Made by a program: the position numbers and the translations under genes. From assembly GCA_039091535.1 (NCBI GenBank), contig JAWCLW010000001.1:11881-75880 (forward strand): a stretch of DNA of 64,000 nucleotides, read 5' to 3'. The stretch is from Candidatus Aenigmatarchaeota archaeon (lineage in GTDB: Archaea; Aenigmatarchaeota; Aenigmatarchaeia; GW2011-AR5). Position 1 is the stretch's first letter; every line of letters starts with the position of its first letter. Shown in pieces: positions 2,128 to 63,846 of the stretch. Under the pieces are notes generated by a model. It had not been told where the DNA came from, searched no databases, and was given only the letters and a program-made list of their open reading frames with translations.

Positions 2128-3543
2128 ATGAGAAAATTATTGTTGTTTGTATTATTTCTTCTGATAGCCAATGTAGTTTTTGCTTTCGAGATAAGTGCAC
2201 CTGAGGGTACAATAGACATAGGTACAGGTAGCACAAAGATTATTAACATAAATCTTACAAGCAACAAGGATGATGATATCACATTTAGTTTTGTAGATGG
2301 AAAGACGTGGATTAATCTGGATGTACAAAAAATTAAAATAAATGCGGGTGAAATAAAAACTGTAAAGGTTTATATTTCACCTTTTTTCACAACACAGTTT
2401 GGACTTTATAAGATCGGTATTGTTGCCGAATCTACGATAAGCAAAGAAACTAAAAAAGCAGATATATTCATTAATGTAAAACGTGGTGAATATATTTACA
2501 TAGACAAGGTTACTGTAAGCGGAAATCTTGAGCCAAAAGGATATGCAAAAATAGAGACAACAATAAAAAATTATAAGTTAAAAACAGTAAATGATATATA
2601 TGTACATACAATTGTTTCATCCCCATTAAGGAAATTATTGGACACAACAATAAAGATAGATAAACTTGATCCAGATGAATCAAAAACAATTGAAAATATT
2701 ATTAATTTTGATAGGCTTGCTGAACCAGGTACATACAACGTAAAAATAATATCAGAATATATGAATGAAAAAAATGAATATGAACAAACATTTGCAGTCA
2801 TAAAAAAAAGTGTAATAACAAAACAATATGAAAAATTTCCATTACTTCTTGGATACGGAAAAACTATAAGAGTAAGAAATGATGGTAATGAAGTTGGTGA
2901 TGAAATTGTTTATGATGATGTGCCAAAATTTGATTCTATATTCTTTTATGGAGATGAACCAACACAAAAGGAAGATGGACGCTATGCATGGAAAATAAAA
3001 GATATAAAACCAGATGAAGAAAAAACAATAACATATTACATAGATTATTCACCATTATTTGTTTTCGTACTAGCAATAATTATAGTTTTTTGGTTCTTTT
3101 TCTATAAATATAGAACTGTAAGAATTAGTAAATTTATTTTAAATAAGAAACACATCGAAGAGGGTGAGGAGTTTACAGTATGTATAAATGTTTATAATGG
3201 TTTAAAGAAACTGGACGAAATTTTGGTACATGATTTTGTCCCATCGATATTTAAAATAAAGGATACAGAAGGACCTGTACCACATAAAAAGACAACAAAT
3301 ATAGGAACAGAATTAACATGGAAATTAAAAGATGTTAAAAGTCATGAAACAAGAATATTAACATATAAAATAATACCAATATTTGGAGTACATGGTACAA
3401 TAAGATTGCCAGAAGCATCTGCAGAATTCAAGTTCGGCAAAAAGTTTGTAAAAAATATCTCAGGATCCCCATCAATTGGTTTAGTTGAAAGTGAAGAAAC
3501 AAAAATAAAATTACTAAGAAGTAAATTTATTTCCAGGAAATAG
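2128..3543 (+). CDS. Secreted/membrane beta-rich protein (signal peptide, CARDB/Ig-like repeats, internal TM helix, C-terminal beta domain)
   Basis: N-terminal signal peptide MRKLLLFVLFLLIANVVFA; repeated beta-strand-rich segments; TM helix PLFVFVLAIIIVFWFFFY followed by KYRTVR. Confidence 0.6.
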   Translation: MRKLLLFVLFLLIANVVFAFEISAPEGTIDIGTGSTKIININLTSNKDDDITFSFVDGKTWINLDVQKIKINAGEIKTVKVYISPFFTTQFGLYKIGIVAESTISKETKKADIFINVKRGEYIYIDKVTVSGNLEPKGYAKIETTIKNYKLKTVNDIYVHTIVSSPLRKLLDTTIKIDKLDPDESKTIENIINFDRLAEPGTYNVKIISEYMNEKNEYEQTFAVIKKSVITKQYEKFPLLLGYGKTIRVRNDGNEVGDEIVYDDVPKFDSIFFYGDEPTQKEDGRYAWKIKDIKPDEEKTITYYIDYSPLFVFVLAIIIVFWFFFYKYRTVRISKFILNKKHIEEGEEFTVCINVYNGLKKLDEILVHDFVPSIFKIKDTEGPVPHKKTTNIGTELTWKLKDVKSHETRILTYKIIPIFGVHGTIRLPEASAEFKFGKKFVKNISGSPSIGLVESEETKIKLLRSKFISRK

Positions 3544-3641: not shown

Positions 3642-3772
3642 CCCCTGATAGCTCAATGGTGCAACAAAATGCATTAAAGAGCGCGTGGCTGTAGACGAGC
3701 TCTATTGAGCTTGTCACCAGTAGGTGCTCGGAAATTACCATGAGGTTGGGAGTTCGAATCTCCCTCAGGGGA
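3642..3772 (+). tRNA. tRNA-Tyr (anticodon GTA) with C1:G72 pair and two predicted introns (about 16 nt in the D-loop, 42 nt at 37/38)
   Basis: Acceptor cccctga/tcagggg+A73 (C1-G72 is the archaeal Tyr identity pair); U8 A9; D stem gctc...gagc separated by 24 nt; anticodon stem cgtgg/ccatg enclosing ctGTAga plus 42 extra nt with a cgagc/gctcg helix; T arm gggag-ttcgaat-ctccc. Confidence 0.75.
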
Positions 3773-52753: not shown

Positions 52754-54076
52754 ATGGATGAAAAAGAACTTTTAGATAGAATTGAGGCTGATAATGTTAA
52801 ATATATTTGTTTGATGTTCACAGATATTCTTGGGACAAATAAAAGTGTGGAGATTCCAAAAAATCAGATTAAGAAGGCATTGAATGGTGAAATAGCATTT
52901 GACGGTTCATCAATAGAAGGATTTGTACGAATAGAAGAATCAGACATGCTTTTAAAGCCTGATTTAGATACATATGTTGTATTTCCATTTAACAAAGAAA
53001 ATAGCAAATCCAAAGTTGCACGATTAATATGTGATGTACATCTTCCAAATGGAGATAAATTTTCTGGATGCCCTAGAACAGCCTTAGAAAATTTTGTAGA
53101 TAAAATAAATAGAAAATATGGATATATTATGAAAGCTGGCACAGAGATAGAATTCTTCCTTTTTAAGAAAGATCAAAATGAAAATATAACAACAAACATA
53201 CACGACAATGCATCATATTTTGATATGGAGCCAATCAATAGAGGATCCAATGTATTGCATAACATAGTTGAAGTATTAGACTCTATGGGTTTTGAAGTTG
53301 AGGCAGCACACCATGAAGTTGCACCAAGTCAGTATGAAATAGATTTCAAATATGCTGATGCTGTAAAAACAGCTGATAAAATAATCACATTAAAATATAT
53401 TGTAAAAAAGATCGCTGATAAAGAGGGACTTTATGCAACATTTATGCCAAAACCTATATTTGGAGTAAATGGTTCTGGAATGCATACACATCAGAGCTTA
53501 TGGAAAGATGGAAAAAATCTTTTCTTTGATCCAGAAAAAGAAGATCAACTTAGTAATCTTGCACTTTATTACATTGGTGGCTTAATTAAGCATGCTAAAG
53601 GAATTACAGCTATAACAAATCCAATCGTAAATTCTTATAAAAGACTTGTACCAGGCTATGAAGCTCCTACAAACATAGCATGGGGGAAAAGAAATAGAAG
53701 CCCGCTTATAAGAATACCAGAAAAACGCGGAAATAGTACAAGAATTGAATATAGATCTCCAGACCCTTCATGTAATCCATATCTTGCATTGCTCGTAATG
53801 TTAGCAGCTGGTATTGATGGAATAGAAAATGAATACCATCCAGGTCCACCAATTGCTAGTAATGTATATCATATGGATGAAAGTGAAAAAAGAATTTTTG
53901 GAGTAGAAAAACTTCCAGCTGATTTGAACGAAGCATTAACATATCTAAAGAATGATGAAGTAATTAAAGAAGCGCTTGGAAAGCATATAGTTAGTAAATT
54001 TATAGAAGCTAAAGAAAAGGAATGGAATGAATATATATCACAAATCCATGATTGGGAGATAAAGAGATATTTATGA
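52754..54076 (+). CDS. glnA: Glutamine synthetase type I
   Basis: N-terminal beta-grasp, DGSSIEGF, and catalytic GMHTHQS, NPYL and R-rich C-terminal motifs; 440 aa. Confidence 0.93.
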   Translation: MDEKELLDRIEADNVKYICLMFTDILGTNKSVEIPKNQIKKALNGEIAFDGSSIEGFVRIEESDMLLKPDLDTYVVFPFNKENSKSKVARLICDVHLPNGDKFSGCPRTALENFVDKINRKYGYIMKAGTEIEFFLFKKDQNENITTNIHDNASYFDMEPINRGSNVLHNIVEVLDSMGFEVEAAHHEVAPSQYEIDFKYADAVKTADKIITLKYIVKKIADKEGLYATFMPKPIFGVNGSGMHTHQSLWKDGKNLFFDPEKEDQLSNLALYYIGGLIKHAKGITAITNPIVNSYKRLVPGYEAPTNIAWGKRNRSPLIRIPEKRGNSTRIEYRSPDPSCNPYLALLVMLAAGIDGIENEYHPGPPIASNVYHMDESEKRIFGVEKLPADLNEALTYLKNDEVIKEALGKHIVSKFIEAKEKEWNEYISQIHDWEIKRYL

Positions 54077-54132
54077 TTTTTTGAATCGAGATAAAGAAAA
54101 ATCCAACAAAATATAAAAATTGTTAAAAAAAG

Positions 54133-54442
54133 ATGCGAGGGGTCGGAATTTCTCAGATCCACAATATTTGATGAAGGCCTTCTATTTCTTTTGGTATATA
54201 AAAACCCTCTTTACCAAACAATGGATCTGTTTTGAACCGACGAACGGATTTGTCCAAAACGTTGCTTTGCAACGTCGCTGTCTAACCGACAAGGTCTCTT
54301 AATAAAGCGACATATATTTACGTTATTTTTTCCTACTTCTGAGCATCGCCTCAGCCCTAAGCTTCGCCTTGACCAATCTTGCGCCTTTGACCAATCAAGG
54401 AAACCGTTTCAAAAGAAACGGAACTGACTTGGCTACCCTCGC
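54133..54442. ncRNA. GC-rich highly structured RNA candidate (~310 nt), unclassified; strand unresolved
   Basis: Local GC far above the ~28% background; termini can pair (gcgaggg 54135-41 with ccctcgc 54436-42, then gtcgg with ctgac); internal helices cagatcc/ggatctg, acgttgc-ttt-gcaacgt, ccgtttc-aaaag-gaaacgg, gtcgct/agcgac; TATA-like atataaaa ~20 nt upstream; SRP helix-8 and RNase P CR-I consensus motifs were not found. Confidence 0.45.
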
Positions 54443-55062
54443 TTCTTAATGATAGAAATAATATTCTTTGAAAACAATTTAAAAACCTTTTCCTTACCAT
54501 AAAATACAGTAATATCATCAAAATATTTTTTTAACAGCTTTTTAAACTCACTCTTTGTAAATAAATGATAATATCGCATGAATTTTTTATTTTCAACTCT
54601 CCATGGTACATATATATCTTTTTTCTTTAAAAAGAATCTTGGTTGCCAACGATTCCAAACAGTAATCATAGCTTCTCCATTATTTTTCATAACCCTTTTC
54701 AATTCTTGTATACACATCTCTCTTTTTTCTTTTTCAATACAATGCAATGTTGCAATAAATATTATAAAATTGAAGGTATTGTCTTTAAATGGTAATGAAG
54801 AAGCATCGCATAAGACCAATTTAACATTCAGATTATTTTTAAAAATATATTTCTTTGCAAGTTTTAACATATTAAGAGATGAATCGATACCAACAAGATT
54901 TTTATTTTTGATAAAATGTCTTCCAGTACCACATCCTATATCAAGAATTATACCATTTTTATTATTCAGAAATTCCAAAACTTCACTAAATGGTTTTTTT
55001 CTAAGATTATACCATGAGCTTGCAATATTATCCCAAACCTCATTTTGATTCATACATAACAA
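54433..55062 (-). CDS. Class I SAM-dependent methyltransferase
   Basis: Motif I ILDIGCGTGRH; 209 aa. Confidence 0.8.
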   Translation of the reverse strand: MLCMNQNEVWDNIASSWYNLRKKPFSEVLEFLNNKNGIILDIGCGTGRHFIKNKNLVGIDSSLNMLKLAKKYIFKNNLNVKLVLCDASSLPFKDNTFNFIIFIATLHCIEKEKREMCIQELKRVMKNNGEAMITVWNRWQPRFFLKKKDIYVPWRVENKKFMRYYHLFTKSEFKKLLKKYFDDITVFYGKEKVFKLFSKNIISIIKKRG

Positions 55063-55232
55063 TTTATTTTCTATTTTTTAAATTTTATCTCGTTTCAATT
55101 TTTCTATCTTAAATACTTTTCGTATAAAAATTATTTTAATGGTTAGGTAGGTAGATGAAGAATATTGGTTTTTTCTAATATTTTCTTCATTTGACTATTT
55201 CTAACCAATAAAAGAGAAATAAGGAAGGTGTT

Positions 55233-55556
55233 TTGAAAATGTATGGAAGAAAGGAAAGAAGAGGTGGTTTTGGACACGGATCTACTCACGGTTTTGGGCG
55301 ACATAAGTTCGATAAACAAAAACCCGTAAAAATAGGTGAAGAATACAATATTAAAATAACAGATGTTGGCGCAAAAGGTGATGGTATAACAAAAATAGAC
55401 AATTTCATCATCTTTGTTGCTGGTACAAAAAAAGGAGAAGAATGCAGAATTCGTATAAAGGAGGTCGCAAGAAAATTTGCTATAGGTGAAAAAATCGGAG
55501 AGACTGAAGTAAAAGAAGAGGAAAGTGAAGAAGAGATTAAAGAAATAGAAGAATAG
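55233..55556 (+). CDS. TRAM-domain small RNA-binding protein with RGG/Gly-rich N-terminus and acidic tail
   Basis: IGEEYNIKITDVGAKGDGITKIDNFIIFVAGTKKGEECRIRIKEV TRAM fold; SD AAGGAAGGTG upstream. Confidence 0.7.
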   Translation: MKMYGRKERRGGFGHGSTHGFGRHKFDKQKPVKIGEEYNIKITDVGAKGDGITKIDNFIIFVAGTKKGEECRIRIKEVARKFAIGEKIGETEVKEEESEEEIKEIEE

Positions 55557-55722
55557 TTTCATAAAAGTTTTTAATAAGACATTTCTTGATTCTATTTTAT
55601 TTTTAATAAGAATAAAGAAACTTTATAATTTTTTAAAAACTAAAAAACTATTCAAATACTCTAAAAATTAAATAAACAAATAAAACTTTAATTTTGTATC
55701 TAACGTCTACTAAACTAAATCA

Positions 55723-56127
55723 TCACTTTATTTTTATGGCTTTTATACCAAATAAACGCTCTAAGATTTTACTGATTATTTTTATATTTTTTCCATTTTT
55801 TCCTATTACTCTTGGTTTATCATTCTGCTTTAACTTAATGCTGACTACATTTTTGTTAATATCTATCTCTTGTATCTCTGGTATTGCATTTTTTACAAAT
55901 GTTTTCACATCTTCAGAATATTCAAAAATTCTTATATTTTTCTTAATAATCTTTTCTGCATTCTTTATTTTGATACCATTTTTTCCAACACTTAGGCCAT
56001 ATTGACCTTTTGCTACAACAAAATAGACATCATTATTTTCTTGGATGCAATCTATAACAGAAGAGCCTGTTAAATTATGAAATAGATTCATCAGTTGTAT
56101 CGTATTCTTGTCAAGAGTGATTCTCAT
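55723..56127 (-). CDS. nusA: NusA-like KH-domain transcription termination factor (archaeal)
   Basis: Two KH motifs (VAKGQYGLSVGKNGIKI and RVIGKNGKNIKII); conserved position after L30e. Confidence 0.85.
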   Translation of the reverse strand: MRITLDKNTIQLMNLFHNLTGSSVIDCIQENNDVYFVVAKGQYGLSVGKNGIKIKNAEKIIKKNIRIFEYSEDVKTFVKNAIPEIQEIDINKNVVSIKLKQNDKPRVIGKNGKNIKIISKILERLFGIKAIKIK

Positions 56128-56133
56128 GATTAT

Positions 56134-56373
56134 CTATTCCTCGTAGCCTACCATTGCAACAGGGAAAGGTTTACCAACTTTTGTCCCTAGTTGTGATTGA
56201 TCACCATCAAATCTTTCTATTTTTACATCTTTGAAATTAGATAATTTCTCAATCAAAAAATCTGGACAATTATTTGCAACAATAATTCTTTTAATATTTC
56301 CATTTTTTATACCTTTAATTATTTCACGTGTTCCAATTACCCCATCCCTTCCTTTCTTAGCCATATAAATCAC
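56134..56373 (-). CDS. rpl30e: Ribosomal protein L30e (eL30)
   Basis: VIGTREIIKGIKNGNIKRIIVANNCP...GTKVGKPFPVAMVG; conserved position between rpoA'' and nusA. Confidence 0.88.
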   Translation of the reverse strand: MIYMAKKGRDGVIGTREIIKGIKNGNIKRIIVANNCPDFLIEKLSNFKDVKIERFDGDQSQLGTKVGKPFPVAMVGYEE

Positions 56374-56377
56374 TTAT

Positions 56378-57490
56378 TTATTTCTTTTTTCTCAATTTTT
56401 CAACATCTACAGTTAACTTAACCATACCTGTACCAATAGGTGCAATCTGTCCTAAAAGTACATTCTCTATAATCCCATCAAGATTATCACTTTCACCATA
56501 GAACGATGCATTTACTAGATGTTTTTTTGTCTCTTCAAAATTTGCACGAGCAAGTACACTTGCCTTTTTTCCAGAAACACCATATCGACCTATATCCTTT
56601 ATAGTCCCATCAAATGTCATCATATCAGCAAGTAATCTTATATGACGTATATCAACATCAAGTCCCTGTTCATCCAATGTATTTTTAGTTTCTTGAAGTA
56701 TAACATTTCTTGCAGCCTCAATACCAAGAACTTCATAAACCTGATATACATCATTTGTTCTTGTTCTTTCAATATCAATCCAATCAAGTGATAAAATTTT
56801 CTTTAGGTTTGAGCCTGTTGTTCGTATTACCCAATCATCACCATCCTTTATAACAACAACATTTTCTATACCTTTTATACCATCTACATGCAGTTTGAGT
56901 ATTTTATTTTTTAATTTTCTTAGATTCTTTGCATCATTTTTTTCTGGCTTTATATATATTTTTTTGCCTTTTAGTGAAATTTCACAATTCTTAACATATT
57001 TATCAAGAATTTCTTTTATCTTATTTTTATTACTTTCTTTTTCTACTTCCATTTCAATTCTCAATTCTATTAAATCTATCGAGCTATATGTAATTAGGTC
57101 ACTTATTTTCAATGCCTTTATTTTACTTGCAAATTCTTTGGCTTTTTCCATTGTATTATATTCTGGTTTTAGGAATATTATCATATTCTTTTCGAATGTC
57201 TTTCTTGCATCAAAAATTTCTATAAGTCTTGGAAGACCATGTGTAACCTTGCTTAATCTATCGCTTTGCGATGCAAGTGTGTAAGATCGCATTGTCATCT
57301 GTGTAGCAGGCTCAGAGATGCTCTGTGCAGCTATTATTCCTATCGCCTCTCCAGGTTCGTATAAATATTTTTTTATTATTGTGGAAAGTAGTTTGAATTT
57401 TTCTTCTTTCTCTTTCTCAGATATATTATTTTTTTTGCAGTATTCATCAAATGCATCTAAAATATTTTTTGGTATATACATAATGATCAT
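56378..57490 (-). CDS. rpoA2: DNA-directed RNA polymerase subunit A'' (Rpo1C)
   Basis: 370 aa; conserved C-terminal third of the largest RNAP subunit; follows rpoA'. Confidence 0.93.
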   Translation of the reverse strand: MIIMYIPKNILDAFDEYCKKNNISEKEKEEKFKLLSTIIKKYLYEPGEAIGIIAAQSISEPATQMTMRSYTLASQSDRLSKVTHGLPRLIEIFDARKTFEKNMIIFLKPEYNTMEKAKEFASKIKALKISDLITYSSIDLIELRIEMEVEKESNKNKIKEILDKYVKNCEISLKGKKIYIKPEKNDAKNLRKLKNKILKLHVDGIKGIENVVVIKDGDDWVIRTTGSNLKKILSLDWIDIERTRTNDVYQVYEVLGIEAARNVILQETKNTLDEQGLDVDIRHIRLLADMMTFDGTIKDIGRYGVSGKKASVLARANFEETKKHLVNASFYGESDNLDGIIENVLLGQIAPIGTGMVKLTVDVEKLRKKK

Positions 57491-57496
57491 TTTATT

Positions 57497-60016
57497 TTAT
57501 TCGAATATTCTTTCTAAATTTATAGTGCCATTATCACTCTTTGCCGGATCAATACCATCTCCACCTGCCACAAATTGAATTATATGGTTTTTGCTATCTC
57601 TTACTGTTCCATCATATTCTACATGTAAATCCTGCAATGCATTGATAAGTCTTCTTTCCATATACCCGGAATGTCTTGTGTGCAATGATTTATCCATAAG
57701 ATTTTCTCTTGAGTTCATTGCATCAAAGAAGAATTCAAATGGATCAAGACCCTTCTTATAACCATCCCTAACAAAACCACATGCCTTAAGACCTATGTCA
57801 CCTTCTTTGAAGTGTGAAAGTGTCCTATTCAAAAAGCCTCTATGTATTCTTTCACCCTCTATTGCTTCTTGACCAACAAATCCACACATTTGCATAAGAT
57901 TAACAAATGAACCACGTGCTCCTGTCCTTGCCATTATAACAGCAGAGTTAAGCGGTAAATCGTTCTTTATTATTTCATTACACTGATTTGAGAGCACACC
58001 ACCAAGTTGAAGTATTCTTGTCTCAAGCGTCTGGCTCATAGTAAGACCTGCTATCTTTTCAAGTCTATTTGCATTATAAGCTTTTATCATCTCACTTATA
58101 TTCTTTTCATATTCTTCTATTATTGATTGTATTCTTTTTTCCGCTTTTTCACTCAAATCAACATCACTTATGGATATGCTAAATCCTTTTTTTGTCAAGA
58201 ATTCTAATGCCATTCTAGATACTTTATTTATGAAGTCCATTGCCTTTTGTGGACCATATTTTTTTTCTATAATATCAATTAATTTTCCCTTCTTTTCACC
58301 AAGTGCTGTATCATCGATAACACCCTTTTTAAGTACACCATTCCTTATTACAACATAAGAATCGTATGGGCAGTTTTCATATTCACATTTTTTGCATCGC
58401 ATGCATGTCTGCGATTTAAATTCTATGTTAAGATCCTTTGGGAGTATTATGCTAAATATCTCTTTTCCTGTATATGTTTCTTTGCGTTCAAAATTTTCTA
58501 TACCAATACTAAACAAAATTTTTACCGCATCTTTTAACGATAATTTTGTATCTTTTTTTGTTAATAAATAACAACCTGTTATGTGATCATGTTTACATGC
58601 AATCACAGGTGATCCATATCTTGGAGATCTTATATGATTTTCAATAGATAGAAGCATCTCTGCTTCTGTTTGTGCCTCTTCTGTTTGCGGTACATGCAAA
58701 TTCATTTCATCTCCATCAAAGTCTGCATTATAAGGTATTGTGGCTGTGAGATTTATCCTCAAAGTTCTGAAAGGCATAATTTTTGCTCTATGGGCCATCA
58801 TAGACATTCTATGCAATGAAGGTTGTCTATTTATCACTGTTATATCTCCATCCATTAAATGACGTTCAACTACGTATCCTATGTCTATCTCATTTGCTAT
58901 ATCTTTTTTATTTTCATCTGTGATTTTTTTTCGCACACCATCAGGTCTTATCACGTAATTGGCACCTGGGTGTGTATTCGGACCATTAAGTATAAGATTT
59001 TTCAGTGTTGAAATATTATTTTTATTAACCTTCACAGGTACTGTTAATTCTTTTGCTATTTCTAGTGGTATGCCAACTTCGTTTAGTGATATACATGGAT
59101 CAGGTGATATTACAGTTCTCGCAGAGAAATTTACACGCTTTCCAGCAAGATTTCCTCTGAAACGACCTTCTTTTTTACTCAATCTCTGCATGAGTGTCTT
59201 AAGAGCCCTTCCAGACCTATGTCTTGCTGGTGGTAGTGTAGATATTTCATTACTCATTAGAGTAGAAACATGATACTGTAATAATTCCCATATGTCAGCA
59301 ATGATAAAGTCGGGTGCACCTATTTCTAAATTCTTTTTTAATCTTTCATTTATCCTAACAACATCAACAAGTTTGTGAGTAATATCATCTTCGCTTCTTT
59401 CCCCTGTTTCAAGTATGATGGACGGTCTTACAGTTACAGGTGGTATTGGTAAAATTGTAAGTACAAACCATTCAGGTCTACCGCCAAATATTTTCAATAA
59501 TTTCAAGTCCTCATCTGTAATTTTTTCTAATCTTTGGCGAATTTCTTCGCTTGTAAGCTCGGTTTTTCCCTCTATATAAGTTGTCGGTTTTTGAAATTCT
59601 ATATTTTTTTGTTTCTCACCACAGTGTGGACATGTTTTTCTAGCTTTTTTATAAAGTTCTGGGAGAGGAAACTTCATTTCTTTTATCTCTTCATCTGTTG
59701 CAAGTGGTCTAGAACATTTTCTACATGTGGCACGTAGAAGCATAAAAATCTTTTTTCCATATAATGGATGGATAACAGGCTTCACAAGTTCTAGATAGCC
59801 AAAATGGCCAAGACACTGACCGATTGTTCCACCACATGTTCTGCATCTCAGGCCAGGGTCAACAACACCAAGGTGTAAATCACAAAGTCCCTTATCTATA
59901 GGATATCCATCAGGATCATATAATTCTGATTCTTCTATCCTTATTGCAGCCATCTCTTTTATCATTTTTGGGGACAAAAATCCAAAATCAATAGATTTTA
60001 CAGGCATATTTGACAC
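57497..60016 (-). CDS. rpoA1: DNA-directed RNA polymerase subunit A' (Rpo1N)
   Basis: Zinc motifs C..C..HFG, NADFDGDEMN catalytic aspartate loop; 839 aa; no intein. Confidence 0.96.
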   Translation of the reverse strand: MSNMPVKSIDFGFLSPKMIKEMAAIRIEESELYDPDGYPIDKGLCDLHLGVVDPGLRCRTCGGTIGQCLGHFGYLELVKPVIHPLYGKKIFMLLRATCRKCSRPLATDEEIKEMKFPLPELYKKARKTCPHCGEKQKNIEFQKPTTYIEGKTELTSEEIRQRLEKITDEDLKLLKIFGGRPEWFVLTILPIPPVTVRPSIILETGERSEDDITHKLVDVVRINERLKKNLEIGAPDFIIADIWELLQYHVSTLMSNEISTLPPARHRSGRALKTLMQRLSKKEGRFRGNLAGKRVNFSARTVISPDPCISLNEVGIPLEIAKELTVPVKVNKNNISTLKNLILNGPNTHPGANYVIRPDGVRKKITDENKKDIANEIDIGYVVERHLMDGDITVINRQPSLHRMSMMAHRAKIMPFRTLRINLTATIPYNADFDGDEMNLHVPQTEEAQTEAEMLLSIENHIRSPRYGSPVIACKHDHITGCYLLTKKDTKLSLKDAVKILFSIGIENFERKETYTGKEIFSIILPKDLNIEFKSQTCMRCKKCEYENCPYDSYVVIRNGVLKKGVIDDTALGEKKGKLIDIIEKKYGPQKAMDFINKVSRMALEFLTKKGFSISISDVDLSEKAEKRIQSIIEEYEKNISEMIKAYNANRLEKIAGLTMSQTLETRILQLGGVLSNQCNEIIKNDLPLNSAVIMARTGARGSFVNLMQMCGFVGQEAIEGERIHRGFLNRTLSHFKEGDIGLKACGFVRDGYKKGLDPFEFFFDAMNSRENLMDKSLHTRHSGYMERRLINALQDLHVEYDGTVRDSKNHIIQFVAGGDGIDPAKSDNGTINLERIFE

Positions 60017-63674: not shown

Positions 63675-63846
63675 TGGGTCCGACGGGATTCGAACCCGCG
63701 ACACCCGGCAGAAGAGACATACGGTTTCTCTCTTCTTTATAAGGGTATGATTAGAGCCGTATTTTCATTTCCCCCATTTAAAAGGCCGATGCTCTTTCCT
63801 ACAATGCGTCCTTCAACAATCATGCACCAGGCTGAGCTACGGACCC
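63675..63846 (-). tRNA. tRNA-Lys (anticodon TTT) with two predicted introns (~30 nt in the D-loop, ~66 nt at the anticodon loop); 172 nt precursor
   Basis: Minus-strand read: GGGTCCG-TA-GCTC-AGCCTGGT[~30 nt]AGAGC-A-TCGGC-CTTTTAA[~66 nt]GCCGG-GTGTC-GCGGG-TTCGAAT-CCCGT-CGGACCC-A; exons reconstitute a canonical archaeal tRNA-Lys(UUU). Confidence 0.7.

Follow-up and report, generated by a model that had tools for sequence, protein, structure and literature searches.

Transfer RNA (tRNA) genes disrupted by bulge-helix-bulge (BHB) introns are known from Thermoproteales, Thaumarchaeota, some DPANN archaea, Asgard archaea and the red alga C. merolae. The stated maximum is three introns per archaeal tRNA gene (PMC4033280, PMC8450103), and the portion of Supplementary Data 4 of PMC11291895 considered here includes Asgard tRNA genes with four. 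We analyzed a 64,000-nt stretch of Candidatus Aenigmatarchaeota (DPANN) DNA (GCA_039091535.1, contig JAWCLW010000001.1, positions 11,881 to 75,880 of the forward strand; hereafter the window, whose own numbering is used throughout). A 309-nt locus on its minus strand (54442→54134) is very probably one cis-encoded tRNA-Leu(UAG) gene with five predicted BHB-type introns, and is an extreme case of a known kind of gene, not a new kind. Text searches of the literature, which were incomplete, returned no report of five introns in one tRNA gene and no paper on tRNA introns in Aenigmatarchaeota. Within that searched literature, the predicted five would be one above any count found reported, exceeding both the "up to three" of reviews and the tRNAscan-SE 2.0 paper and the four of one Asgard table, as far as that portion of it goes.

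The locus can be compared with several systems already described. As in Thermoproteales (Pyrobaculum, Thermofilum), the gene is cis-encoded, with BHB or relaxed-BHB introns both at the canonical site and elsewhere (D-loop, anticodon stem, variable region, T-loop) (PMC4033280, PMC8450103, PMC4090602), it is predicted to be processed by the tRNA-splicing endonuclease EndA and a ligase, and it is missed by standard tRNA finders. It differs from them in intron number (a maximum of three there, five here), in its low-GC DPANN host, and in that the introns of the different tRNA genes in the window, when compared, had no similarity and no sign of transposition. In the Asgard lineages Atabeyarchaeia and Freyarchaeia (PMC11291895), most tRNA genes are likewise disrupted, and over half have multiple introns; many of these were missed by tRNAscan-SE and came to light only on structure-based inspection. 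The highest count there, in the portion of the table considered, is four, these lineages belong to another superphylum, and the junctions of introns 1, 2 and 4 of our gene are verified by orthologues without the intron concerned. Within DPANN, the epsilon2 EndA of ARMAN/Micrarchaeota and the alpha4 EndA with an L3 loop have been associated with broad specificity, more tRNA disruption and incomplete predicted tRNA sets (PMC3239211, PMC5829648). Finally, the split and tri-split tRNAs of Nanoarchaeum equitans and Caldivirga maquilingensis and the permuted tRNAs are also fragmented and joined at BHB-like motifs by the same enzymes, but their pieces lie at separate loci or in permuted order, whereas here six collinear exons lie in one 309-nt locus.

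The gene is cut into six exons (86 nt in total) by five introns, which together take up 223 nt, or 72% of its length. Counted along the minus strand from the 5' end of the gene (hereafter index), introns 1–5 occupy 18–49, 66–80, 88–147, 162–194 and 213–295, with lengths of 32, 15, 60, 33 and 83 nt. Their in-silico removal gives a perfect class II cloverleaf, GCGAGGGUAGCCAAGUCUGGUCAAAGGCGCAAGGCUUAGGACCUUGUCGGUUAGUCCGUUCGUCGGUUCAAAUCCGACCCCUCGCA, which ARAGORN calls as an 86-nt tRNA-Leu(tag). The unspliced locus yields no ARAGORN call and no match to the Rfam tRNA model, as expected with five insertions. On the unspliced minus strand, the 5' strand of the 7-bp helix GCGAGGG/CCCUCGC is followed by UA-GCCAAGUC, by UGGUCAAAGGCG, by CUUAGG and by GUCGG-UUCAAA...U-CCGAC, which abuts the 3' strand of that helix. 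Each arm of a tRNA-Leu can be read from these blocks. The acceptor stem is GCGAGGG/CCCUCGC followed by A. Without intron 1, the D-arm reads UA GCCA AGUCUGGUCAA AGGC G, containing U8, A14, G18G19, A21 and a stem of 3–4 bp. The block UGGUCAAAGGCG, covering the D-loop and the 3' strand of the D-stem, is identical in an unrelated intron-less tRNA-Leu(GAG) gene (L020), a block which the L020 search pattern required. Without introns 2 and 3, the anticodon arm is CAAGG CUUAGGA CCUUG, with a 5-bp stem, a 7-nt loop, U33 and a purine at position 37; the variable arm, U CGG UUAGU CCG UUC, has a stem of its own; and without intron 5 the T-arm is GUCGG UUCAAAU CCGAC, which fits the UUCRANY loop and abuts the 3' strand of the acceptor stem. 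The discriminator, A73, is typical of tRNA-Leu.

As so many free junctions might let a cloverleaf be assembled from any sequence, the control for chance was an alignment of the locus to an unrelated intron-less archaeal metagenomic tRNA-Leu(GAG), allowing up to five free introns, compared with 200 dinucleotide shuffles. The minus strand scored 39, against 5.4±3.4 for the shuffles (maximum 17) and 8 for the plus strand; with the search-pattern positions (approximately) masked, it scored 25 against 5.0±2.8. The leucine call was also insensitive to the exact variable-region junctions, with 249/249 tested variants called as tRNA-Leu by ARAGORN.

Exon 1 (54426..54442, 17 nt) holds the acceptor strand GCGAGGG, U8 and A9, the 5' strand of the D-stem and the start of the D-loop. 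Intron 1 (54394..54425) interrupts the D-loop after position 17; its BHB has a 4-bp central helix (CAAG/CUUG), bulges UC|A and AU|U, and an inner hairpin CCGUUUC-UUUU-GAAACGG. Exon 2 (54378..54393, 16 nt) carries the rest of the D-loop (UGGUCAA), the 3' D-stem strand AGGC, G26 and positions 27–30 of the anticodon stem (CAAG). Intron 2 (54363..54377) splits the anticodon stem between positions 30 and 31 with a relaxed BHB, consisting of a 3-bp central helix (CGC/GCG) and an inner 2-bp helix with a tetraloop. The 7-nt exon 3 (54356..54362; G31, C32, U33, U34, A35, G36 and G37) bears the anticodon UAG. Intron 3 (54296..54355) is at the canonical 37/38 position and has a 4-bp central helix (CUUA/UAAG) with bulges GG|G and AG|A. 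Exon 4 (54282..54295, 14 nt) comprises A38, the 3' anticodon-stem strand CCUUG, U44, the 5' variable-arm strand CGG and the loop nucleotides UUAG. Intron 4 (54249..54281) lies in the variable-arm loop (UUAG|U), at a junction set by homology, and has only a relaxed BHB, with a 3-bp central helix, an enlarged 3' bulge and an inner hairpin ACGUUGC-AAA-GCAACGU. Exon 5 (54231..54248, 18 nt) contains the variable-loop U, CCG, UUC, the 5' T-stem strand GUCGG and the T-loop nucleotides UUCAAA. Intron 5 (54148..54230), in the T-loop at 59/60, has the best motif of the five introns, a near-textbook hBHBh' in which the outer helix is the T-stem itself (GUCGG/CCGAC), the central helix is UUC(A)/(A)GAA, the bulges are AA|A and AU|U, and the inner helix is CAGAUCCA/UGGAUCUG; the palindrome GAAGGCCUUC sits within this intron. 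Exon 6 (54134..54147, 14 nt) supplies U60, the 3' T-stem strand CCGAC, the 3' acceptor strand CCCUCGC and the discriminator. CCA is not encoded at the 3' end. Two nucleotides past the discriminator is a run of seven T (54125..54131 in window numbering, read on the minus strand), which is likely an archaeal transcription termination signal.

Two homologues allow the predicted junctions to be compared with related genes. A metagenome scan for a split D-arm with a Leu anticodon loop after it gave 12 hits, 11 of which were chance matches or an ordinary intron-less tRNA-Leu(GAG). The single true homologue (L023) is a 241-nt tRNA-Leu(UAG) gene with introns in the D-loop, at 37/38 and at 59/60 (28, 29 and 98 nt), the last with a perfect BHB; like the window gene it has a T7 run, here directly after its discriminator. 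L023 is uninterrupted exactly at the predicted sites of intron 2 (the 15-nt intron) and intron 4 (in the variable arm). The other homologue (L026) lies on the contig that encodes the closest homologue of the neighboring methyltransferase (50% identity), with its tRNA-Leu(UAG) beginning 58 nt downstream of that gene. Its first 40 positions run without a break and match the predicted product of exons 1, 2 and 3 at every nucleotide. The only introns are one of 34 nt at 37/38 and one of 56 nt in the variable loop at UUAG|U, where the BHB helix has its full 4 bp; the contig ends in the T-stem. The intron matrix is therefore introns 1–5 in the window, 3 and 4 in L026, and 1, 3 and 5 in L023. For introns 1, 2 and 4, the predicted junctions are confirmed by a close relative without the intron. 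Introns 3 and 5 occur in every close homologue whose sequence extends over their sites and are missing only in the unrelated L020; their removal restores universal tRNA loops. Rfam and ARAGORN also miss the L023 and L026 genes, and both find the intron-less L020.

The exons are conserved as a cloverleaf. In the spliced alignment, 80/80 base-pair cells pair, and 10 of the 23 pairs have compensatory double changes. None of 500 shuffles reached any of these measures, and sliding the 3' pairing partner by 1–3 columns left only 27–48% of cells paired. The covarying pairs join exons up to 300 nt apart, namely exons 1 and 6 in the acceptor stem, exons 2–3 and 4 in the anticodon stem, and exons 4 and 5 in the variable stem. 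Relative to L023, the acceptor stem has two covarying positions (G-C to A-U and A-U to G-C); in the anticodon stem, four of the five pairs have compensatory changes across the alignment; and the stem of the variable arm reads CGG/CCG, UGG/CCA and CUC/GAG in the three homologous genes. Compared with L026, the exons differ at 4 nt, all compensatory. Compared with L023, they are identical at 77/86 positions (90%), and eight of the nine differences form four compensatory pairs, the ninth being a change from G-C to G-U. Introns are another matter: in a global alignment of the window gene with L023, intron 3 is at the shuffle background and introns 1 and 5 are slightly above it. Local similarity between orthologous introns was detected for intron 5 against L023 (z = 5.5) and for the 5' part of intron 3 against L026 (z = 4.8).

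Junctions were set by the spliced product and by homology and were not picked by motif, so the splice motifs can be compared with background. At all 10 junctions of the three genes, the 4 nt before the 5' site and the 4 nt before the 3' site pair at three or more of four positions (at all four in six cases), a geometry in which each cut follows the second nucleotide of its 3-nt bulge, as in archaeal BHB motifs. Relative to all junction pairs in the same sequences, individual background fractions range from 0.0001 to 0.18, with a Fisher-combined p of ~2e-15. The motifs of introns 1, 2, 3 and 5 (central helices of 4, 3, 4 and 3 bp) rank in the top 4.8%, 0.7%, 0.2% and 0.2% of junction pairs, and removing these introns at their cut positions reproduces canonical D-, anticodon- and T-loops.

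Some of the results weigh against a functional gene with five introns. The motif of intron 4 is the weakest, lacking an outer helix in strict register and equalled by 18% of arbitrary junction pairs, and that of intron 1 is modest (background fraction 0.048). Without constraints, folding yields the flanking helices but leaves out the short central ones of the BHB motifs; a fold forced to include the acceptor stem, the T-stem and the central helices of introns 1, 2 and 5 is 8.4 kcal/mol less favorable than the minimum free energy structure. The latter contains a 12-bp, G-U-rich helix between index 43–54 and 65–76 (54367–54400), joining the intron 1/exon 2 boundary to its copy at exon 2/intron 2; this helix, created by the probable duplication described below, would compete with the BHB motifs of these two introns. 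In addition, the homologues found number only two, and one of them (L026) is truncated. These points could be accommodated if the locus were a decaying tRNA-Leu pseudogene, in which a gene with one to three introns gained inserts that cannot be removed while another gene supplies tRNA-Leu(UAG): intron 4 has a weak BHB, intron 2 is probably a young duplication, and competing structures exist. However, we consider this unlikely, as all 23 cloverleaf pairs are intact after predicted splicing, and as the exon changes relative to L026 and L023 are nearly all compensatory although the flanking methyltransferase is just 50% identical. Intron 4 has a counterpart with a good BHB at the same site in L026; the relaxed BHB of intron 2 is usable, in the top 0.7% of background; and U8, G18G19, U33, G37, UUCAAAU and A73 are all kept. 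A smaller departure from the predicted structure would be a gene with four introns, in which the variable-region insert is kept as a 48-nt variable arm or is excised at other junctions. BHB score alone prefers 156|196 and 157|195 (index 157–195 or 158–194) over the weak motif at 161|195, and ARAGORN tolerates many variable-arm lengths. Yet those alternatives leave variable regions of 9–11 nt that are unable to form a stem, L026 has a clean BHB intron with a 4-bp helix exactly at UUAG|U, and the uninterrupted 15-nt variable arm of L023, UUGGUUAGUCCAUUC, matches UCGGUUAG plus UCCGUUC of the window block by block, with a compensatory change in the stem. Four introns are thus very unlikely, less probable still than a pseudogene, and ranking junctions by BHB score alone selected the wrong variable-region junctions. 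Another candidate variable arm, U GGA CAAA UCC GUUC (index 155–187 removed), whose hairpin spans the boundary of intron 4 and exon 5, has no BHB support and is refuted by L023 and L026.

The locus had been flagged from sequence in an initial annotation (54133–54442, nearly the same bounds) as a structured non-coding RNA gene, possibly a divergent signal recognition particle (SRP) RNA or RNase P RNA or another RNA class. That it is structured was borne out: the minus strand folds at -104.9 kcal/mol (z = -5.3, reached by 0/100 shuffles), and the spliced cloverleaf covaries. The plus strand, which the initial annotation had implied to be the RNA strand, folds at -78.8 kcal/mol (z = -3.0), also beyond chance but less so than the minus strand, which is the strand of the RNA. 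Its description of the element as GC-balanced was right in that GC is raised, at 0.38–0.43 against 0.25–0.30 in the surroundings (200-nt windows), and overstated for the element as a whole. The exons have a GC content of 0.58, the introns 0.37 and the whole window 0.296, which accounts for the modest overall rise. The perfect local hairpins it listed are present as inner helices of introns; also present are the gaaggccttc palindrome and the two copies of the direct repeat ttgaccaatc, at a spacing of 18. Its terminal helix holds for the seven base pairs of gcgaggg/ccctcgc, which form the tRNA acceptor stem. The proposed gtcgg/ctgac extension does not, since gtcgg corresponds to the 3' strand of the T-stem, which pairs with GUCGG at minus-strand index 202–206. 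The TATA-like atataaaa taken to be upstream lies downstream of the gene, just past the T7 run.

An SRP-like or RNase P-like RNA, or an unclassified structured RNA whose tRNA likeness is coincidental, would agree with a length of ~300 nt, with paired 5' and 3' ends, with the folding z of -5.3 and with the absence of an Rfam tRNA match on the unspliced locus. Archaeal SRP and RNase P RNAs share this size and end pairing, but they differ in that the locus has neither an Rfam match nor helix-8 or P4/CR motifs, and in that conservation falls on the exon blocks and not on the long hairpins. For SRP RNA (Archaea_SRP), there was no Rfam match on either strand at the gathering threshold or at E<=10, and a hand fit to helices 2–8 failed; for RNase P RNA there was likewise no match at either cutoff, and a hand fit (P1–P4, CR-I/V) failed, with no complementary P4 strands. 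The lack of SRP and RNase P motifs reported in the initial annotation was thus correct. A cmscan-type comparison with Rfam, which it had proposed, recognized no family at the locus (nothing at the gathering threshold, and at E<=10 only unrelated families with E > 2); the covariation analysis that it had also proposed gave the 10 of 23 double-changed pairs described above, on the spliced sequence. A coincidental likeness to tRNA is excluded by the spliced-alignment control (z = 10). In the homologues, the intron interiors are absent or unrelated in sequence, while the six exon blocks are kept and show the covariation of a cloverleaf. We therefore give a distinct non-coding RNA hardly any credence. 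An 86-nt tRNA-Leu(UAG) lengthened by five introns (223 nt) accounts for the size of ~300 nt. An independent Logan assembly of the same organism (L010) has an identical locus sequence and adds no comparative information.

Intron 2 is, by sequence, essentially a near-copy of the preceding 17–18 nt. The 10-nt direct repeat TTGACCAATC, whose two exact copies have a spacing of 18, is the core of a longer duplication: index 47–65 (GATTGGTCAAAGGCGCAAG, exon 2 with the final 3 nt of intron 1 before it) and index 65–82 (GATTGGTCAAGGCGAAGC) match at 17/19 positions with two 1-nt gaps. The most likely origin of intron 2 is a tandem duplication of 18 nt, within this lineage, across the boundary of intron 1 and exon 2. 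As both relatives are without intron 2, a lineage-specific duplication after the gain of intron 1 is the simplest reading. Such a duplication would have been tolerated because it can be excised, with splicing restoring the anticodon stem. For BHB introns, gain by intron transposition has been proposed, and one paper concerns short direct repeats near splice sites; in the literature searched, which was incomplete, no described case was found of a BHB intron born by local duplication. If this origin is correct, it would be a de novo route of archaeal intron gain, distinct from the intron transposition proposed for Thermoproteales, and the intron matrix of the three relatives together with the duplication-like intron 2 would be a concrete case of rapid archaeal intron gain and loss.

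The gene structure rests on tool results, and the processing steps are modeled on established archaeal tRNA biology. Transcription would either start at a promoter within the 3' end of the methyltransferase gene or continue into the locus from that gene, and would stop at the T7 run. RNase P and a 3' nuclease would trim the ends, EndA would cut within the 3-nt bulges of each BHB motif, an RtcB-type ligase would join the six exons, and CCA would be added post-transcriptionally. The BHB motifs of introns 2 and 3 share C82–U84 and so are mutually exclusive, which implies that removal must be stepwise. The product, an 86-nt class II tRNA, would read the leucine codon CUA and related CUN codons. 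Should the gene be functional, each 309-nt precursor requires five ordered excisions by the endonuclease and ligase of a genome-reduced symbiont. The top-scoring BHB-like motif of the whole element is inside intron 3 (54303–54351, index 92–140) and would excise 49 nt. It has a helix GGGC/GCUU, bulges UGA/UAU and flanks CUUA/UAAG and GGCG/UGUC. This motif may be a chance occurrence or a nested intron; about two as good are expected among 22,254 junction pairs.

The tRNA-Leu gene is not the only disrupted tRNA gene in the window. Rfam matches across the window at the gathering threshold were three tRNAs only, one of them with two large insertions, which pointed to an archaeal source. When the window was screened for T-arms that abut an acceptor stem, the known tRNAs came up again, together with the tRNA-Leu gene and one gene missed by both Rfam and ARAGORN. 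The latter is a 172-nt tRNA-Lys(UUU) gene (63675–63846, minus strand) whose D-loop intron measures 30 nt and whose 37/38 intron measures 68 nt; tRNA-Asp(GUC) lies 37 nt upstream of it. Its spliced 74-nt product is called as tRNA-Lys(ttt), and the unspliced gene is missed by Rfam at the gathering threshold and by ARAGORN. The Rfam tRNA with two insertions is tRNA-Tyr(GUA) (3642–3772, plus strand), which has an 18-nt D-loop intron and a 42-nt intron at 37/38 and gives no ARAGORN call when unspliced. The window thus has five tRNA genes, of which three are disrupted, each with a D-loop intron. Rfam cmscan and ARAGORN thus share a blind spot that covers the tRNA-Leu gene, the two-intron tRNA-Lys and both tRNA-Leu homologues, and the "missing" tRNAs reported from DPANN genomes may partly reflect such genes, not real loss or trans-splicing. 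A broader proposition combines several of these points: that this is the most fragmented collinear tRNA gene of which any record was found, that its intron 2 is newly born by a duplication that folds into a cleavable BHB, that such fragmentation is general in the lineage, and that it is one cause of the missing tRNAs of DPANN. Taken jointly, we regard this as tentative, falling a little short of an even chance.

The tRNA-Leu gene is located between glnA (52754–54076, plus strand), which is convergent to it, and an open reading frame (ORF) for a class I S-adenosylmethionine methyltransferase (54433–55062, minus strand), which is upstream on the same strand. The methyltransferase is 100% identical to a protein encoded on a 234-kb contig of a Candidatus Aenigmatarchaeota metagenome-assembled genome. 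The initial annotation had noted that the last codons of the methyltransferase ORF overlap the terminal helix, which is the case, but took that gene to be the convergent one. Its final codons and TAG stop (..CGA GGG TAG) coincide with tRNA-Leu positions 2–10 on the same strand (54433–54442), so that the first 10 nt of exon 1 lie within the ORF. As the ORF ends inside the tRNA gene, either the tRNA promoter is within the ORF or the two are co-transcribed. In L026 the methyltransferase and tRNA-Leu(UAG) are 58 nt apart, and for the other methyltransferase homologues (P0007, P0010, P0003, P0020, P0004) tRNA-Leu is not adjacent. The L023 gene adjoins a convergent ORF of 416 aa (2188–3438) and neither glnA nor a methyltransferase, so synteny is kept only in the closer relative, L026.

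An exact look-up of glnA gave no record, a glnA-based scan of GTDB genomes returned only distant, mostly bacterial loci, and glnA was useless for synteny. Besides the protein of the metagenome-assembled genome itself, the nearest relatives of glnA (52754–54076) are ~60% identical, and the named ones are bacterial (Acidobacteriota, Calditrichia and others), which suggests that glnA was horizontally acquired. Upstream of the tRNA-Leu gene (~55140–57500; L010), RNA polymerase subunit A'' (Rpb1 domain 5) comes first, followed by an L7Ae-family ribosomal protein, a NusA-like KH protein, a TRAM-domain protein encoded on the opposite strand and, last, the methyltransferase.

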